IMG/VR virus record: IMGVR_UViG_3300023174_000105
Direction: 5' to 3' (one strand)
Length of the DNA stretch: 64,000 nucleotides
From: an uncultured virus (IMG/VR IMGVR_UViG_3300023174_000105)
Taxonomy: Duplodnaviria; Heunggongvirae; Uroviricota; Caudoviricetes
The notes below the pieces were generated by a model that was given only the letters and a program-made list of their open reading frames with translations, was not told the origin of the DNA and did not search any database. Shown here in pieces: positions 10,385-56,062 of this stretch. Made by a program: the position numbers and the translations under genes. Positions within the stretch are counted from its first letter, which is position 1. Every line of letters starts with the position of its first letter.

Positions 10385-12331
10385 ATGGTAGATAAAAACA
10401 AGGTAATTACCTTAACCAGTACATTTACTAAAAGTGTTCTACCTACCAAAGACATGAGCATTGATTCAATCATGATCGAAGGTTACGCAAGTACAGTCGA
10501 TACTGATCGTCAAGGCGATATTGTACCTAGTACAGTATGGAAAAGCGGTGTGCAAAATTACTTGAAAAATCCAGTAATTTTAGCGTATCATGACCATAGT
10601 GAGCCTATTGGTAGAATGGTAGATCATAGAATTGACAGTAAAGGTTTGTGGATTAAAGCACGGATTTCTGCAGCAGCAGGTGAAGTGTTTAATCTTATAA
10701 AAGACGGAGTACTTACTGCGTTTAGTATTGGGTTTCGTATCGCTGATGCGGAATATAATGCAGCTAATGAGCTGTTTGTTGTAAAAGAACTGGAACTACA
10801 TGAAATTTCAGTAGTGTCCGTACCTGCTAATCAAAATACATTATTTAGTTTGTCTAAGTCGTTTAACAGCGACGAAGAAGTTAAATTTTTCAAACTGCAA
10901 TTTGCGCCCAAGTTGGAATCAGCTAAAGGGCTAGAGTCCCCCGTGGAAGCAAATGGCGACACTACAAAGGAATGGAACATGGATCCTAAAGATTTGGAAA
11001 AATTGCTAGCTGACACAGCTAAGCAAGCTGCTGCTGAAACAGCAAAAGCTATCGCTGAGCAACAAGCTCAGGCTGCTGTAGAAAAAGCAGCACAAGAGCG
11101 TGCACAGGCCGATCTTGACGCTAAAATCAAAGCCGCTGTTGCACAAGTGCAAACAGTTGACACAGGTGCTGAGCGCCTACTTGCAGAAGTAGAAAAGCGT
11201 GTTGCTGAACAAGAGCAAACACACAAGTCTGCTATTGCTAGTCTACAAGCTACACTAGCAGAAAAAGCTGCTGAACTCGAGGCCGTTCAAAAATCACGTA
11301 TGCAATTTGCTGCTGATGGTACATCAGCCACAATGAGCTATGCTGACAAAGAAAAGGCTGTTTTACTTGCTCGTATGGCTAACAAAGGTGTTGAAGACAC
11401 CAAGTTTGGTCGTGAAATGGTTCAAAAGTACGGTGCTCACGTACCCAGCGCTACTTGGGAACTTGAAGTTTCACTAAATATGGAAGCTGAGGTTCGTCGT
11501 CGCCTAGTCGTCGCACCGCTATTCCGTCAGATCGCTATGCAAACTAACGTAATGAAGATCCCCGTTAATCCAGAAGCAGGTACTGCTCAGTGGATTGACA
11601 ACTCTTCATTTGGTAGCTCAACAAGTGCTGGTAATAATGCCACACATGCGCTCAAAGAGATCACACTCAGCGCATACAAAGTTGCTACCAACGAGTACAC
11701 AGCTTACGAAGAAGAAGAAGATAGTCTTATCGCTATTATGCCTGTAATTCGTGACGGTATGATTCGTCGTATCGCTCGTGCAGTTGACAAGGCTCTACTC
11801 CGCGGTGCTGATACTACAGGCGATCCTATTAAGGGTCTAGCTAGTGCAGCTGGTAGTTCAACACAAACTGGTATTACTAATACTACCACAGCTGTTACAG
11901 TTGCTAACTTACGTAATATGCGTAAGCAATTAGGTGTTTGGGGTCTAGATCCAGCAGATGTAGTTTACATTGTTAACAGCAGCGTTTACTACAATCTACT
12001 TGAGGACACAGTCTTCCAGACAATGAACCAAGTTGGTCCACAAGCTACACTACTTACTGGCCAAATTGGTCAGATCGGCAACTCACCAGTACTAGTTTCT
12101 GGCGAGCTTGGTGATCCTAGCGCAACAGCCGGTACTACATTTGCTAACGTTGGTGCAATTTGCGTTGCTCCTGGCAACTTCGTTGTTGGTAACCAGCGTG
12201 GTCTACGTATCGACACACAAGAATTGGTTGAAACACAGCGTCGCGTTATGGTTGCTAGCCTACGTACAGGTTTTGTACAGGTTACAAGCAACTACGGTGC
12301 AGGTGTAACTCGTCTAATTTACTCCGCCTAA
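10385..12331 (+). CDS. Fused prohead protease + scaffold (delta) domain + HK97-fold major capsid protein
   Basis: N-terminal IEGYAST..DRQGD, H, FSIGF, EISVVSVPANQ (HK97-type protease), then an Ala/Gln/Glu coiled coil from ~aa 199, then a capsid domain; one ORF. Confidence 0.92.
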   Translation: MVDKNKVITLTSTFTKSVLPTKDMSIDSIMIEGYASTVDTDRQGDIVPSTVWKSGVQNYLKNPVILAYHDHSEPIGRMVDHRIDSKGLWIKARISAAAGEVFNLIKDGVLTAFSIGFRIADAEYNAANELFVVKELELHEISVVSVPANQNTLFSLSKSFNSDEEVKFFKLQFAPKLESAKGLESPVEANGDTTKEWNMDPKDLEKLLADTAKQAAAETAKAIAEQQAQAAVEKAAQERAQADLDAKIKAAVAQVQTVDTGAERLLAEVEKRVAEQEQTHKSAIASLQATLAEKAAELEAVQKSRMQFAADGTSATMSYADKEKAVLLARMANKGVEDTKFGREMVQKYGAHVPSATWELEVSLNMEAEVRRRLVVAPLFRQIAMQTNVMKIPVNPEAGTAQWIDNSSFGSSTSAGNNATHALKEITLSAYKVATNEYTAYEEEEDSLIAIMPVIRDGMIRRIARAVDKALLRGADTTGDPIKGLASAAGSSTQTGITNTTTAVTVANLRNMRKQLGVWGLDPADVVYIVNSSVYYNLLEDTVFQTMNQVGPQATLLTGQIGQIGNSPVLVSGELGDPSATAGTTFANVGAICVAPGNFVVGNQRGLRIDTQELVETQRRVMVASLRTGFVQVTSNYGAGVTRLIYSA

Positions 12332-16544: not shown

Positions 16545-16567
16545 ACCCCAACCAACCAAGGTGACTA

Positions 16568-16987
16568 ATGTCCACACTTTCTCTTAAATCACTACTAGTT
16601 CCTTCCAAGTCAGTAGAAACAGAATATCCTGGTATGCCAGGTTTTAAACTACAGCTTAGTTTCTTGTCCCGGGAAATCTTGCTTAACGTTCGCAAAAAAT
16701 CTACAAAAACCACTTTTAAAAATCGCAAACCTGAAGAAGAATTTAATGAAGATCTTTTCTTGCAACTATATACAGAAAATGCAATTAAAGGTTGGTCAGG
16801 ATTTAAACTTAAGTACCTAGAACAACTAGCTCCAGTTGATTTAACTGGTCAAGACTTAGAAGATTACTTAGAGTTTACAAATGAAAATGCACTGTATTTG
16901 ATGAAAAACTCAAGCAATTTTGATGCATTTATTAGTGAACAGGTAAGTGATCTGGCAAATTTTTCGAATGGCAGCTTGCAGAAGTAA
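16568..16987 (+). CDS. Tail assembly chaperone (gpG-like)
   Basis: Between tail tube and tape measure; slippery A-AAT-TTT at 16957-16963 near its end. Confidence 0.85.
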   Translation: MSTLSLKSLLVPSKSVETEYPGMPGFKLQLSFLSREILLNVRKKSTKTTFKNRKPEEEFNEDLFLQLYTENAIKGWSGFKLKYLEQLAPVDLTGQDLEDYLEFTNENALYLMKNSSNFDAFISEQVSDLANFSNGSLQK

Positions 16988-17343
16988 ACAGGCTGCTTAA
17001 AAACTATTTTCAAAATAGCGAAGTTAGTATGACTAAGGCGGCCTATTTTGAAATGTGTGAACAACTGGGTAATGAACCCATTGAAGAAGAAATTCCAGTT
17101 GAATTTGATGACTTCTATTATGAAGTGCAACAGGCTTTTATTGTGTACAGAATGTTGCGTGATGAGTGGGAAGGCATGAATGGTATTTATTTAGGTAAAT
17201 CCCTAGTTGGAATCAAAGAAATATTTAGTGTATGTGAAATTGATCCACAAGATTACAAAATTATTTTGACACTTGTGCAAACAATTGATAGAATCAGACA
17301 AGACGAAATTAATACTAAACACCAAAGCAAAAAACCCGCTTAG
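16957..17343 (+). CDS. Tail assembly chaperone extension (gpT-like), reached by -1 frameshift
   Basis: The -1 frame is open from the slippery site (FEWQLAEVNRLLKNYFQNSEVS) into ORF 17029..17343. Confidence 0.8.
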   Translation, partial: KFFEWQLAEVNRLLKNYFQNSEVSMTKAAYFEMCEQLGNEPIEEEIPVEFDDFYYEVQQAFIVYRMLRDEWEGMNGIYLGKSLVGIKEIFSVCEIDPQDYKIILTLVQTIDRIRQDEINTKHQSKKPA

Positions 17344-53400: not shown

Positions 53401-53514
53401 TTATCAAATGGTTTTAAATACAGAAACGATATTGGAGCACCAAATACAAATGGTGTAACCTACATTTTTGCAGCTTTTGCAGAAACACCTTTTAAATACG
53501 CCAGAGCCAGATAA
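50413..53514 (+). CDS. IPT/Ig + LamG + SPRY-like adhesin (1033 aa)
   Basis: IPT/TIG-like I.GTGF...V.FVNSTEL, Ig-like LPTGLSLSSSG.LSGT; C-terminal ~780 aa paralogous to 44073..47420. Confidence 0.75.
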   Translation: MNFPANPTLDQTYTYGTRTWKWDGTTWNLQRGATALATVATTGSFTDLVNKPTTIAGYGITDATAAIPKITSIVVTDSSYNNLDDTAVSTAGGYIKILGTGFTTGSQVLINTTSASSVSFVNSTELRAQLPATSAGTYVVYVVAADGSVAIRVNGITFSATPTWTTSSTLPESLANNAISIQLAATSNSTVSYSLASGSTLPTGLSLSSSGVLSGTITGVTVATTYNFTINAIDQELQDSPRAFSISISVVVQIARSLRFNNADSAYLNRTPGSAGNRRTWTWSGWVKRGLIDLNYRSFFANGTSVDSIMFWNDTSLAVRNYNGSSYDVRTTQLFRDPSAWYHLVVAMNTTQSTASDRIKIYVNGVQVTTFAVATYPSQNYDTGFNTTTAQYLGYNEYNYFDGYMTEVNFVDGQALTPASFGEADPDTGVWRPKYYTGTYGTNGFYLNFSDNSATTATTLGKDYSGNSNNWTPNNFSVSAGAGNDSLVDSPTSYGTDTGVGGEVRGNYCTWNPLDTNTSTVFLTNGNLQSQTSSNSWANSRGTFAPTTGKWYFESTLTNAADYSEIGVIAMGRAIPASYPGGESYAWIYGNNGYLYNSGGITGFPGSGLSNGDVMMIAYDNDAGKVWFGRNGTWYNSGNPAAGTNASFPTYTIMQPIIGMWGSTAIVNTNFGQRPFAYTAPSGFKTLCSQNLPTPAIGATSTTQANKYFNAVTYTGNGSTQSVTGVEFQPDLVWTKSRSASGFNILRDSIRGSGVRLISDASYSELDDATYGTFTSDGFNLGSNTNINTSGTTYVAWNWKAGNSTVTNTAGSLTSQVRANTTAGFSIVSYSAGATNATVGHGLGVAPAMIIVKCRTNASAPWVIYHKLLSNQKDYTLVFGTDAQINIGNYWGTSGPNSTTFGTSYNGYANNIENLIAYCWAEIEGYSRFGSYVGNGSADGPFVYCGFRPRWVMIKAISSTSDWWITDTARNPNNVTNYGLRANTSGYEVTDVGQDILSNGFKYRNDIGAPNTNGVTYIFAAFAETPFKYARAR

Positions 53515-53876
53515 TGTTAAACGACATAAAAATAATTATTACTATTGCCATAGTTATAGGCCTAGGCGTATTAGGTATGTTTGCCTATAACAAAGTCTAC
53601 AATCGTGGTTATGAGCAGGCACACTTAGAGTGTGTGGAAGCCAAGCAAAAATATGAACAGGAGCTGCAAGATAAAATTACGCAGTTAGAGAGTAGTTTAA
53701 CTAATACTCAACAATCGGCTAATAAAAAGCAACAACGATTAAATCGTCAAATTGTAACAATTACTGAACAATTAAAAACTGAGCCGGTTACTATTGTAAA
53801 AAACGGTGAGTGTTTACCATCACCCAGTTTTGTAGATAGTATCAGCGAGGCAATTATGCGAGCCAACGAAAAATGA
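53514..53876 (+). CDS. i-spanin (Rz-like)
   Basis: N-terminal TM, periplasmic coiled coil, C-terminal Cys; precedes a lipoprotein gene. Confidence 0.75.
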   Translation: MLNDIKIIITIAIVIGLGVLGMFAYNKVYNRGYEQAHLECVEAKQKYEQELQDKITQLESSLTNTQQSANKKQQRLNRQIVTITEQLKTEPVTIVKNGECLPSPSFVDSISEAIMRANEK

Positions 53877-54166
53877 AAATCAATACAATATTCAGCTTTT
53901 GCCTTGTTGCCGCGCTTACTGGATGCGGAATTTTTTCCAAAAAATCAACTGAAACACCAGTAGTCGCGGCAACACAAAAACGTGTGGTAGTAGAACCTGA
54001 GTTATTAACGGGCTGTGAACTACTACCACCACTAACTAAAAATCCTACATATGACGACATAGCCCAGCACTATATTCAAGTTATTGGTCTATACGGCACG
54101 TGTGCACTTAAACAAGCGGCTGGCATTGAAGCTATTCGCAAACTTTCCAATTTGGACAAACCATGA
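53873..54166 (+). CDS. o-spanin (Rz1-like lipoprotein)
   Basis: Lipobox LTGC; Pro- and Cys-containing mature part. Confidence 0.75.
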   Translation: MKINTIFSFCLVAALTGCGIFSKKSTETPVVAATQKRVVVEPELLTGCELLPPLTKNPTYDDIAQHYIQVIGLYGTCALKQAAGIEAIRKLSNLDKP

Positions 54167-54582
54167 AAGAACACCTACGCTTCCGCAACGTCTTTATGAT
54201 TGGCGGTACCATTATTGTTATGCTGTATCTTTTTATCAGCGACCCTAATGGCGGTAACATGACTATCCCATTCTTAGCTAAACTAGCCACGCCCATTGTA
54301 GCTGTATGGTTTGCACATCTTGCACGCCGTGCCTTATTTGACTACGCAGACATGGAACAGTTAATGAAAAAAGCACGTGAAACCGCCACTGGCGCAGGCT
54401 TAACTTTTTTAGGACTTTGCCTAATTATCTACGGTTTGCTCTCACTATTCGGCTCACAGGTATATGCACAACCAGTCAGTACTTATATTCCCCAGCAGGC
54501 ACAAGAACACCTAAGCACAGTTCAAGTAGAAAAAGATAAGCTTTGGGCCACACACCCAAAGCTGCATACCTTGGTAGTTTAA
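54163..54582 (+). CDS. Three-TM membrane protein (holin-like); N-terminal part of a frameshift fusion with the endolysin
   Basis: Three hydrophobic helices and a VYA-Q signal-peptidase-like site; slippery C-CCA-AAG at 54555-54561. Confidence 0.7.
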   Translation: MKEHLRFRNVFMIGGTIIVMLYLFISDPNGGNMTIPFLAKLATPIVAVWFAHLARRALFDYADMEQLMKKARETATGAGLTFLGLCLIIYGLLSLFGSQVYAQPVSTYIPQQAQEHLSTVQVEKDKLWATHPKLHTLVV

Positions 54583-55118
54583 TAGAGCTCGAATCCTGCA
54601 TACACTTAAAGCATCCACGTTGTTGGAATCCTAAGTCTAGACTTAAGAGTGCTCGTGAAGAAGGTGCAGGACTTGGACAGATTACCCGGGCGTTTAAAGC
54701 AGATGGTACCATTAGGTTTGATGCTCTATCAGAACTAAAACATAAGTATCCTAGAGAATTAGCAGAATTGTCGTGGCAAGTAGTTTATGACCGACCAGAT
54801 CTACAAATCCGTACATTAGCCCTAATGATGCGAGATAACTACCAGTATTTTAATAAATATGTAAAAGATCCTTATCACGCATATGCTTTTGCAGATGCTG
54901 CCTACAACGGCGGAGTGGGCGGTGTAGATCATGAACGCAGAGCTTGTAAATTAGCTACGTGGTGTGATCCTAATCAGTGGTTTGATAATGTGGAGAAACT
55001 TTGTTTAAAATCCAAGGCGGCACTTTATGGTAATCGTAGTGCTTGTGATATTAACCGTGAACATGTAAGTAATGTAATTAACACACGCAGTGAAAAGTAC
55101 GCAAAGTATCTTCATTAA
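54555..55118 (+). CDS. Endolysin catalytic domain (lysozyme-like / lytic transglycosylase), in the -1 frame
   Basis: IELES (catalytic Glu), GLGQIT and AAYNGG motifs; no convincing independent start. Confidence 0.8.
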   Translation, partial: PKAAYLGSLIELESCIHLKHPRCWNPKSRLKSAREEGAGLGQITRAFKADGTIRFDALSELKHKYPRELAELSWQVVYDRPDLQIRTLALMMRDNYQYFNKYVKDPYHAYAFADAAYNGGVGGVDHERRACKLATWCDPNQWFDNVEKLCLKSKAALYGNRSACDINREHVSNVINTRSEKYAKYLH

Positions 55119-55137
55119 CCTATTGCAAGGTTTGTAT

Positions 55138-55827
55138 ATGGCTAATAATTCTGGTAAACAAGTTCGTAAAGCCCTACTTCTTGAACATCAAAATCCTATT
55201 GAAAATGGTTTCAAGGAAATTAAACCACTAAACGAAATTCAAAGTATCTACCTAGAGGCAATTAAACAAAATGATATTGTTTTTGGTATAGGTAGTGCTG
55301 GTACAGGTAAAACTTATGTAGCAGCTAGTTACGCCGCGGGTTTATTATTTCACAGAAAAATTTCAAAAATTATCCTAACCCGACCAAACGTAGAAACAGG
55401 TCGTGGCATGGGTTTTTTACCAGGCAAAATTGATGATAAATACGCACCGTACTTACAGCCATTTGACGCAGTGTTTACAAAAACCTTAGGTCGCGGATTT
55501 TACGAGTATGCAGTTAAAAGCAAAGATATTGACCCTAGGCCCATTGGATTTATGCGAGGTTCGAGTTTTGAGTATGCTATTGTACTAGTAGACGAAGCGC
55601 AAAATTTGACTAAAACTGAGTTTAAAATGTTGCTGAGCAGGATTGGCAAAGGTTGTAAGATTATTCTTAGCGGTGACCCTAAGCAGGTAGACATTCCGGA
55701 CAGTGGATTGGAGGATAGTGTACGTAGACTACAAGGCATTCCTGGTGTGGAGATTGTAAGATTCTTAGACGAAGACATTGTACGCAGTAAAATGTGTAAA
55801 CAGATTATCCTAGCCTACAACGATTAA
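55138..55827 (+). CDS. phoH: PhoH-family ATPase
   Basis: GSAGTGKT, LTRP, GFLPG, FMRG, VDEAQN, LSRIG, GDPKQ.D, DIVRS; start likely ATG 55138. Confidence 0.95.
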   Translation: MANNSGKQVRKALLLEHQNPIENGFKEIKPLNEIQSIYLEAIKQNDIVFGIGSAGTGKTYVAASYAAGLLFHRKISKIILTRPNVETGRGMGFLPGKIDDKYAPYLQPFDAVFTKTLGRGFYEYAVKSKDIDPRPIGFMRGSSFEYAIVLVDEAQNLTKTEFKMLLSRIGKGCKIILSGDPKQVDIPDSGLEDSVRRLQGIPGVEIVRFLDEDIVRSKMCKQIILAYND

Positions 55828-55828
55828 T

Positions 55829-55867
55829 AAAAAAGCCCCTAAGCATTGCTGCTTAGGGGCTTTTTTG
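55829..55867. terminator. Bidirectional terminator between the convergent late and replication arms
   Basis: AAAAAAGCCCCTAAGCA-TTGC-TGCTTAGGGGCTTTTTT. Confidence 0.92.
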
Positions 55868-55870
55868 TTT

Positions 55871-56062
55871 TTAACCTAACTGTTCAGTGGTTTGTACACT
55901 TTCATCAATGTTTTGATTAATTGTACGACCCGGCATTTGCTGTTTGGCTTGTTCAATTAATTTTTGACTAAGTGGATTGCACACTTTAGCAGGTAGTTCT
56001 TGTAGTCCTGCAAGGATTACGTTAGCTTCGTCTTCGGTTAGTTCAAATTGGAATGTTTTCAT
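55871..56062 (-). CDS. Small hypothetical protein (MKTFQFELTEDEANVILAGLQELPAK...)
   Basis: Start moved to ATG 56062, just after the nrdJ stop. Confidence 0.7.
   Translation of the reverse strand: MKTFQFELTEDEANVILAGLQELPAKVCNPLSQKLIEQAKQQMPGRTINQNIDESVQTTEQLG

Follow-up and report, generated by a model that had tools for sequence, protein, structure and literature searches.

Programmed −1 frameshifting is well known from phage tail-chaperone genes, capsid genes, dnaX and insertion sequences. A natural holin-endolysin fusion has also been reported, in Clostridium sporogenes, and is described in that report as previously unrecognised (Microb Cell 2022, PMC9527704). Here we describe a lysis locus of an uncultured tailed freshwater phage (IMG/VR record IMGVR_UViG_3300023174_000105, Caudoviricetes), which lies on the plus strand of a 64,000-nucleotide stretch of DNA that we refer to as the window. 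An open reading frame (ORF) for a three-helix membrane protein, ORF A, is overlapped in this locus by an endolysin ORF in the −1 frame, and a slippery heptamer lies in the overlap. Comparison with relatives leads us to conclude that the locus very probably uses a programmed −1 frameshift, yielding a holin-like membrane protein and, at a lower frequency, a form of it with the endolysin attached. The sites of Escherichia coli dnaX (A AAA AAG) and of the IS3/IS911 transposases belong to the same mechanism class and heptamer family; they differ in having an upstream Shine-Dalgarno (SD)-like element and a downstream hairpin or pseudoknot, none of which was found at the lysis locus, and the dnaX shift truncates its product whereas the lysis-locus shift would extend it.

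The junction and its relatives

ORF A (54163 to 54582, plus strand) encodes 139 residues, comprising the three-helix module, the first 31 residues of the enzyme domain and six out-of-frame residues, and would be the product made without a shift. Close to its end the 0 frame reads CAC (54553), CCA (54556), AAG (54559) and CTG (54562), and two consecutive stops (TAA TAG, 54580 to 54585) stand six sense codons past the heptamer C CCA AAG (54555 to 54561). An initial annotation, made from the letters alone, had placed the end of the membrane ORF seven codons beyond this site, had taken the heptamer to be in X XXY YYZ phase, and had predicted a shift product of 318 residues; direct reading bears out all three, with the TAA at 54580 to 54582, the tRNAs at Pro132 and Lys133 positioned to re-pair on CCC and AAA, and 133 + 185 residues in the product. 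The −1 frame is closed upstream by a TAA (54537 to 54539) and is open only from 54540, forming ORF B (54540 to 55118), which overlaps ORF A by 14 codons with the heptamer inside the overlap. Its enzyme part past the site has 185 residues, from GCT at 54561 to the TAA at 55116 to 55118, and matches phrog_669 (endolysin, 1.1e-12). Gene callers start a 191-residue ORF in this frame at a TTG (54543 to 54545) that derives from the 0-frame Trp codon (T TGG). Within the 191-residue ORF, E-L-E-S is encoded at 54585 to 54596, ending in a Glu-Ser pair (GAA TCC, 54591 to 54596) that is invariant in 32 and in 39 aligned relatives and whose Glu we take to be catalytic, from the E-S motif of family 1 lytic transglycosylases. 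As a bare word CCCAAAG shows no excess over chance (the window has 5 copies where 6.68 are expected), and the case therefore rests on comparison; what stands above chance is the phase of the heptamer, its position in the overlap, and its conservation together with the split in relatives. ORFs overlapping at a −1 offset, an in-phase heptamer in the overlap, and an arrangement conserved with purifying selection are the features by which we recognise a programmed −1 frameshift here.

For this comparison, 295 loci were fetched from viral contigs, genomes and metagenomes; once the window was added, the E-x-E-S...CW motif served to anchor 273, leaving 23 without an anchor. The anchored loci include 178 distinct ones, of which the 174 with enough upstream sequence (the window included) were used. 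Loci were called split when the Trp is in the 0 frame, a stop precedes the motif, and the upstream ORF is long. Thirty-nine are split by this rule and two more (L219 and L243) have a 0 frame that stops slightly later, giving 41 split and 133 unsplit loci. An in-phase X XXY YYZ lies in the overlap of 40 of the 41 split loci and at the equivalent place in 1 of the 133 unsplit ones (Fisher p = 4e-37 for heptamer against split, a value that ignores shared ancestry), and only 3 of the 133 have an in-phase heptamer anywhere in the 60 nucleotides before the motif. Five versions of the heptamer are seen among split loci: CCCAAAG in 28, CCCAAAA in 8, CCCTTTT in 2 (L222 and L249), CCCAAAC in 1 (L226) and A AAA AAG in 1 (L282), where it sits one codon downstream of the usual place. 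This apparent swap of one slippery heptamer for four others at the same spot is more telling than the Fisher p value. The rarer loci (CCCTTTT, A AAA AAG, CCCAAAC, and one with CCT TTT C that we return to below) came from a metagenome scan; viral-contig scans with P0090, P0119 and P0116, which carry P-F, S-K-K and S-Y variants at the P-K position, returned mostly contigs already in the set.

The split relatives are well diverged from the window. The 40 distinct ones are 54 to 94% identical to it in nucleotide sequence over the junction region, and the rate of synonymous substitution (dS) between the window and most of its closer relatives is about 0.7 to 1.1. The heptamer positions are kept in 38 to 41 of the 41 split loci while adjacent third codon positions vary freely, and the 0-frame stop lies 5 nucleotides before the E-x-E-S motif in 30 of 39 tabulated split loci, the window included. 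The unsplit proteins P0083, P0115 and P0117 (319 to 328 residues) carry W-x-D-H-P-K/R/S-x-x-x-L...E-x-E-S in one continuous frame; W-A-D-H-P-K-A-S-Y-L of the contiguous relatives aligns with the window's 0-frame L-W-A-T-H-P-K followed by its −1-frame A-A-Y-L-G-S, and their Trp-to-Glu spacing of 14 is that of the window's predicted shift product. The initial annotation had asked whether homologues would keep the split and the heptamer or be contiguous: all 40 split relatives stay split, 39 of them with an in-phase heptamer, and the unsplit ones lack it with the single exception given above and have the junction that a −1 slip predicts. By this comparison, the split, the in-phase heptamer and both coding halves are conserved as a set, and the unsplit relatives are colinear with the predicted product.

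The sole unsplit locus with an in-phase heptamer at the equivalent place, L269 (208 to 1137), is an in-frame fusion carrying C CCA AAC, and could be an intermediate between fused and frameshift-coupled forms. Named genome matches are mostly Betaproteobacteria, such as Duganella, Ideonella and Parazoarcus. One split form 79% identical to the window enzyme (L173) is on a contig binned in a Pirellulales-labelled genome, and another locus (L193) is from a bin labelled as a Woesearchaeota archaeon and has an N-terminal sequence almost the same as that of the Pseudoduganella record L190; in both cases a phage or prophage contig seems to have been assigned to the wrong organism's bin.

The initial annotation had cautioned that a single missing A, through mutation or assembly error, would give the same fusion. 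This is excluded. The contigs of four runs (X1, X2, X3 and X6) have no inserted or missing base at the slip site; X1 is the probable source run, X2 and X3, from an independent wastewater study, cover the whole stretch with 25 substitutions and no gap, and X6 is from a further study. Moreover, both halves are under purifying selection, the median ratio of nonsynonymous to synonymous substitution rates (dN/dS) being 0.12 for the enzyme part (207 pairs with 0.05 < dS < 1.5; maximum 0.23) and 0.08 for the N-terminal part (215 pairs; ungapped comparison).

The junction also contains an inverted repeat (54539 to 54563, plus strand), AGCTTTGGG and CCCAAAGCT, a perfect 9-bp stem with a 7-nucleotide loop that pairs the Trp-codon context with the heptamer, its 3′ arm. 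The 34-nucleotide stretch folds at −13.8 kcal/mol, and the scan also scores a terminator-like site here on the minus strand. We considered this hairpin as a candidate regulator. It is strong in the window, L219 and L006, whereas the CCCUUUU and AAAAAAG loci lack it. The conserved Trp codon together with CCCA largely accounts for it, similar stems are present in many, not all, split relatives, and it cannot form while a ribosome occupies the slip site.

The enzyme fold and rival explanations

A structural model was built by AlphaFold2 for the unsplit relative P0083 (63% identical to the window's enzyme part) with 39 full-length sequences, and has a mean predicted local distance difference test (pLDDT) score of 89.4 and a predicted template modelling score of 0.74. 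Helices at 7 to 26, 34 to 61 and 75 to 99 are followed by a short linker, a helix at 111 to 127 (pLDDT 97 to 98), and the E-x-E-S helix at 135 to 145. The enzyme has a lysozyme-like alpha-helical fold in this model, and a structural aligner places it closest to MltF (Z 17.9, root-mean-square deviation 2.7, 174 residues aligned), then Slt70 and MltC (both Z 16.1), MltE (Z 15.5) and goose-type lysozyme (Z 11.9); a Foldseek search with the whole model gave best matches that are all family 1 lytic transglycosylases, although weak (E = 2.5e-3). E-x-E-S is invariant, and would correspond to the catalytic Glu followed by Ser that closes an early helix in that family. Since profiles of Pfam, NCBIfam and PDB gave no match to the enzyme and only PHROG 669 (endolysin) did, we regard it as a structural relative and not a member of the SLT-type sequence families. 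Six Cys are invariant among the aligned relatives and would fit a periplasmic enzyme.

The model also bears on where the enzyme begins. In the MltF, MltE and Slt70 alignments the matched part of the model begins at residues 101 to 103, upstream of the shift-equivalent residues 132 and 133, and the modelled fold starts right after Ala102, with about 30 of its residues encoded before the slip site. The first part of the enzyme domain (residues 103 to 133; 54469 to 54561, plus strand) is thus read in the 0 frame and holds the fold's first helix (111 to 127), which argues that the −1 ORF is no stand-alone gene. The same had been argued in the initial annotation from the closeness of the catalytic ES motif, only ~10 codons on. 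Stand-alone lysozymes (lambda R, T4 E) usually have their catalytic Glu about 17 residues into the protein, and the distance is a weak argument alone; the claim stands by virtue of the helix encoded upstream of the split.

The locus can otherwise be read as two ordinary overlapping genes, a 139-residue three-helix holin and a cytoplasmic 191-residue endolysin released through the holin holes, with endolysin synthesis beginning at the TTG at 54543, either independently or when ribosomes re-initiate past the nearby 0-frame stop. Lysis genes are most commonly arranged with the holin ahead of the endolysin, and gene callers adopt this model: of 1923 candidate homologues in the database, 1827 match the 191-residue ORF at E ≤ 0.001, and 89 of the best 120 are called from exactly 14 residues before E-x-E-S, the TTG-equivalent position. 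Furthermore, 24 of the 39 split loci, including the window, have ATG, GTG or TTG at the Trp position, and some independent initiation is possible there. However, the second residue in all 89 of those homologues is G, A, V, E or D, from a G-starting codon (with P-K at positions 5 and 6 in 83 of them), which is why we read the called start as a shadow of the conserved 0-frame Trp (N-TGG-G read as NTG G..) and the NTG as its by-product. In the other 15 of 39 split loci the triplet is CTG or missing, and there is no ATG, GTG or TTG at least 6 codons before the motif. The −1 frame opens at no fewer than nine different distances from the motif (−30 to −237 nucleotides), and in five loci a −1-frame stop stands directly before the heptamer (TGA in L021, L024, L028 and L030; TAG in L222). 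For a further 16 of the best 120 homologues the called start stands just 2 or 6 residues ahead of the motif, and such enzymes cannot work. The TTG at 54543 has no SD, as had been noted earlier, there being no GGA, GAG or AGG in the preceding 23 bases. By this comparison, a separate enzyme start is not conserved. Two ordinary genes would also leave the association between heptamer and split, in five versions, unexplained; the 191-residue product would be without the first helix of the fold; and the 31 residues past helix 3 in ORF A are conserved like enzyme and not like a holin tail. We consider this explanation quite improbable. Among the best 120 homologues are also three contiguous proteins of 319 to 328 residues and several of 228 to 235 residues with a plain signal peptide. 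The 191-residue enzyme as annotated in the 89 lacks both the export signal and the first fold helix, so that enzyme mining of such sequences would express a truncated protein.

A second alternative is that RNA polymerase slips and inserts an extra base into a fraction of the transcripts, so that these encode the fusion. Polymerase slippage would yield an identical protein, and L282 has a run of six A; the usual site, however, has runs of only three C and three A, and known bacterial cases need long homopolymer runs. Moreover, the pattern that is conserved is codon-phased (X XXY YYZ), which matters to tRNAs and not to the polymerase, and we hold transcriptional slippage, which is discussed for dnaX of Thermus in a 2016 recoding review (PMC5009743), to be highly improbable. 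That the locus is simply a once-fused gene broken by a one-base deletion or sequencing error, with loss of the enzyme, is scarcely credible: fused relatives do exist and one base would restore the frame, but the four runs, including X2 and X3 of the independent study, show no indel, the same split recurs in 40 distinct relatives, dN/dS is as low as 0.12 past the break, and the catalytic Glu-Ser and six Cys are invariant.

Membrane module, predicted export and slip efficiency

The three-helix module (residues 1 to 102; 54163 to 54468, plus strand) ends in V-Y-A, and its hydropathy segments lie at about 7 to 25, 33 to 51 and 78 to 96, in agreement with the three membrane segments and V-Y-A/Q site of the initial annotation. 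Basic residues at the N terminus and after helix 2 of ORF A predict, by the positive-inside rule, that the N terminus is inside and the C terminus outside. Helix 3 aligns with the signal peptide of the short forms (228 to 235 residues), from which we infer that it would serve as an internal signal sequence for export of the enzyme by Sec. Signal peptidase probably cuts after V-Y-A (Ala102), releasing the enzyme; Ala102 is invariant in 39 full-length relatives, and this invariant Ala at −1 of the cleavage-like site suggests an enzyme that is freed in the periplasm, not tethered. The protein does not fit the description of a signal-anchor-release (SAR) endolysin, whose one weakly hydrophobic N-terminal helix stays uncleaved and leaves the membrane later: three helices precede the enzyme, and the invariant Ala of a V/A-x-A site after helix 3 suggests cleavage.

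All loci were searched with a profile of module residues 1 to 100 (E-values scaled to 10^6 sequences). Every one of the 41 split loci has a match in its upstream 0-frame ORF; of the 133 unsplit loci, 70 carry the module fused in frame, 27 carry it as a separate gene (E = 3e-20 to 2e-4), and 36 lack it. In those 27 loci the module gene stops immediately ahead of a signal-peptide form of the enzyme. This separate occurrence leads us to expect that the module does something in its own right, most likely as a holin-like protein or through some other control of the enzyme. As a small protein with three membrane helices encoded between spanin genes and enzyme, it resembles a holin, and protein-atlas neighbours with Holin_2-3 members score 0.82 and 0.81 against it, although these are leads only.

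Taken together, the proposed frameshift would operate as follows. Ribosomes would start at the ATG at 54163 and make the three-helix inner-membrane module, with its N terminus inside and helix 3 pointing out, and would go on into the first 31 residues of a periplasmic endolysin of lytic-transglycosylase type. At C CCA AAG most would stay in frame and stop seven codons on, giving the 139-residue membrane protein, and a minority would slip by −1, with tRNA-Pro moving from CCA to CCC and tRNA-Lys from AAG to AAA, and read 185 more codons to give 318 residues, with the complete enzyme hanging on the outer side of helix 3. After cleavage at V-Y-A, ribosomes that do not shift would leave a membrane fragment and a short peptide, and those that shift would leave the same fragment and a complete enzyme. 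The shift would in this way set a low and fixed ratio of enzyme to membrane protein.

Several observations weigh against this frameshift interpretation. Its support is wholly comparative, and the 41 split loci share ancestry and are not 41 independent events, so that the five heptamer versions are the better count of support. One split locus, L246, has no X XXY YYZ (0 frame CCT TTT CAA TAG, junction at about 1500 to 1545), and a shift there would depend on the U-run that directly precedes the stop, two codons past the usual place. The NTG triplets of the 24 split loci also belong here. For the membrane part, Pfam and NCBIfam gave no match, holin profiles included, and phrog_8226 (holin) is matched by 9 of 38 module sequences (best 2.4e-4), the window's own not among them; a holin role is weakly supported. 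The remaining points concern the slip itself. A consensus RNA structure over 129 columns of the 41 split loci reaches −0.05 kcal/mol, with none conserved, and the window's 99 nucleotides past the heptamer (−14 kcal/mol) fold worse than shuffled sequences (z = +1.59), in keeping with the absence of a strong downstream hairpin in the initial annotation. Upstream SD-like pairing is −2.4 kcal/mol in the window, where the split-locus mean is −4.3 against a background of −2.1. The 64-kb window has no tRNA genes. Finally, according to Sharma et al. 2014 (PMC4066793), heptamers without a stimulator give only 2 to 10 times a background of about 0.05% in E. coli, and the enzyme might therefore form at well under 1%.

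Pairing of −6 kcal/mol or better is found in 24% of split loci and 8.7% of background windows; a candidate upstream SD-like stimulator is thus weakly enriched among split loci, but absent in the window and not conserved. Stimulators of either kind, a hairpin or pseudoknot past the site or an SD-like sequence ahead of it, commonly accompany programmed −1 sites without being required. With no RNA stimulator found, efficiency probably comes from the heptamer itself, and perhaps from the nascent chain too. In the same study by Sharma et al. 2014 (PMC4066793), the most efficient heptamer classes in E. coli are V_VV.A_AA.R and H_HH.U_UU.Y, and no heptamer outperforms C_CC.A_AA.G in the reporters, where it reaches 54% when a pseudoknot is present; the three commonest heptamers of the split loci and A AAA AAG fall in these top classes. 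As to the nascent chain, a 2025 preprint (PMC12776465) states that a translocating nascent membrane helix suffices for a −1 shift with the heptamer 45 codons downstream. At the lysis locus about 37 codons lie between the end of helix 3 and the slip codons, and by analogy it is conceivable, if rather unlikely, that the slip is driven by helix 3 being pulled into the Sec translocon, by nascent-chain tension and not by RNA structure. If true, this would be the first natural bacterial or phage frameshift signal composed of a membrane helix plus a slippery site, and would tie the amount of endolysin to the host membrane-insertion machinery, a built-in gauge of lysis timing.

Phage context and comparison with known systems

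The stretch occurs in lake and wastewater metagenome runs, and one metatranscriptome run contains 0.04 of the sampled words. Its plus strand carries genes for terminase, portal, head, tail tube, tape measure and tail fibres, with replication genes on the minus strand, and the lysis cassette forms the tail end of the late operon: spanin genes, ORF A, the −1-frame enzyme ORF and then phoH. The first cassette gene (53514 to 53876, plus strand) encodes an Rz-like i-spanin (phrog_1152, Rz-like spanin, 5.1e-8) with one N-terminal membrane helix (hydropathy segment 5 to 23). The second (53873 to 54166, plus strand) encodes an Rz1/LysC-like o-spanin lipoprotein (phrog_456, Rz-like spanin, 2e-6) that matches Pfam LysC PF23793 at 4.1e-5, under the curated cut-off, and its stop overlaps the ORF A ATG. 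The two constitute a two-component (Rz/Rz1) spanin of separated architecture, and spanin genes adjoin the enzyme gene in split, in-frame fused and separate-gene arrangements alike. None of the 60 other ORFs of the window has a lysis-category PHROG match at 1e-5, and a 'distant' blastn search of 53500 to 55900 against 50,697 phage records gave as its sole match a 59-base PhoH stretch in two Acinetobacter phage records. In the split relative L029 an extra 119-residue ORF (2284 to 2640) separates the o-spanin gene from the three-helix ORF; it encodes one C-terminal membrane helix, matches no PHROG, is not present in the window, and might be a further lysis component.

Elsewhere in the window, at 16565 to 17343, is a tail assembly chaperone pair (phrog_313 and phrog_3914), the second ORF being in the −1 frame and overlapping the end of the first. 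The overlap contains an in-phase A AAT TTT at 16957 to 16963, a classical G/GT-type frameshift, and this phage would therefore use −1 recoding twice. A 648-residue ORF at 10385 to 12328 matches a head maturation protease (phrog_80, residues 28 to 331) as well as major head families phrog_617 and phrog_267, and looks like a protease-capsid fusion.

The literature searched, judged from titles and the beginnings of abstracts, contained no report of a programmed −1 frameshift in a holin-endolysin gene, and the part of the 2016 recoding review examined mentions neither endolysin nor holin (PMC5009743). If real, the frameshift would be a third way to set the dose of holin to endolysin, the others being separate genes and dual-start holins. 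Across the family the two modules are found apart as two genes, joined in one frame, and as a putative frameshift-coupled pair, and thereby offer a natural series for testing stoichiometry against lysis timing.

The lambda-like tail chaperones G/GT, with a −1 shift at G GGA AAG, resemble the lysis locus in having an X XXA AAG-type slip near the end of the upstream ORF, at a position conserved across diverged phages, and in making a short product together with a rarer C-terminally extended one in fixed ratio. They serve virion assembly, however, and their extension is a second domain, whereas the site here cuts a single enzyme fold downstream of a membrane module. SAR endolysins (P1 Lyz, phage 21 R) and the signal-peptide endolysin Lys44 of fOg44 likewise reach the periplasm by a hydrophobic segment at their own N terminus, but with one helix in place of three; in the present family the module also occurs as a separate gene, and synthesis of the enzyme would need a frameshift. 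In fold (Z 17.9 to 11.9) and Glu-Ser motif the enzyme is like the family 1 lytic transglycosylases (MltF, MltC, MltE, Slt70) and goose-type lysozymes, and it differs from the transglycosylases in having no sequence-level profile match and six invariant Cys. The C. sporogenes fusion, with its TpeE-family holin, is comparable to the 70 in-frame fused relatives; it is from a Gram-positive (PMC9527704), has a one-helix holin and an unrelated enzyme, and involves no frameshift. In MS2, the function of lysis gene L is also reported to depend on frameshifting in an overlapping upstream gene, but this is an RNA phage in which error shifts are followed by re-initiation and no fusion protein is made. 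The alphavirus 'TMD-slip' (bioRxiv 2025, PMC12776465) is alike in that the heptamer lies tens of codons past a membrane helix and RNA structure is unneeded; it differs in operating in eukaryotic systems with an optimum of 45 codons, and the spacing in the lysis family is also fixed by the protein fold.

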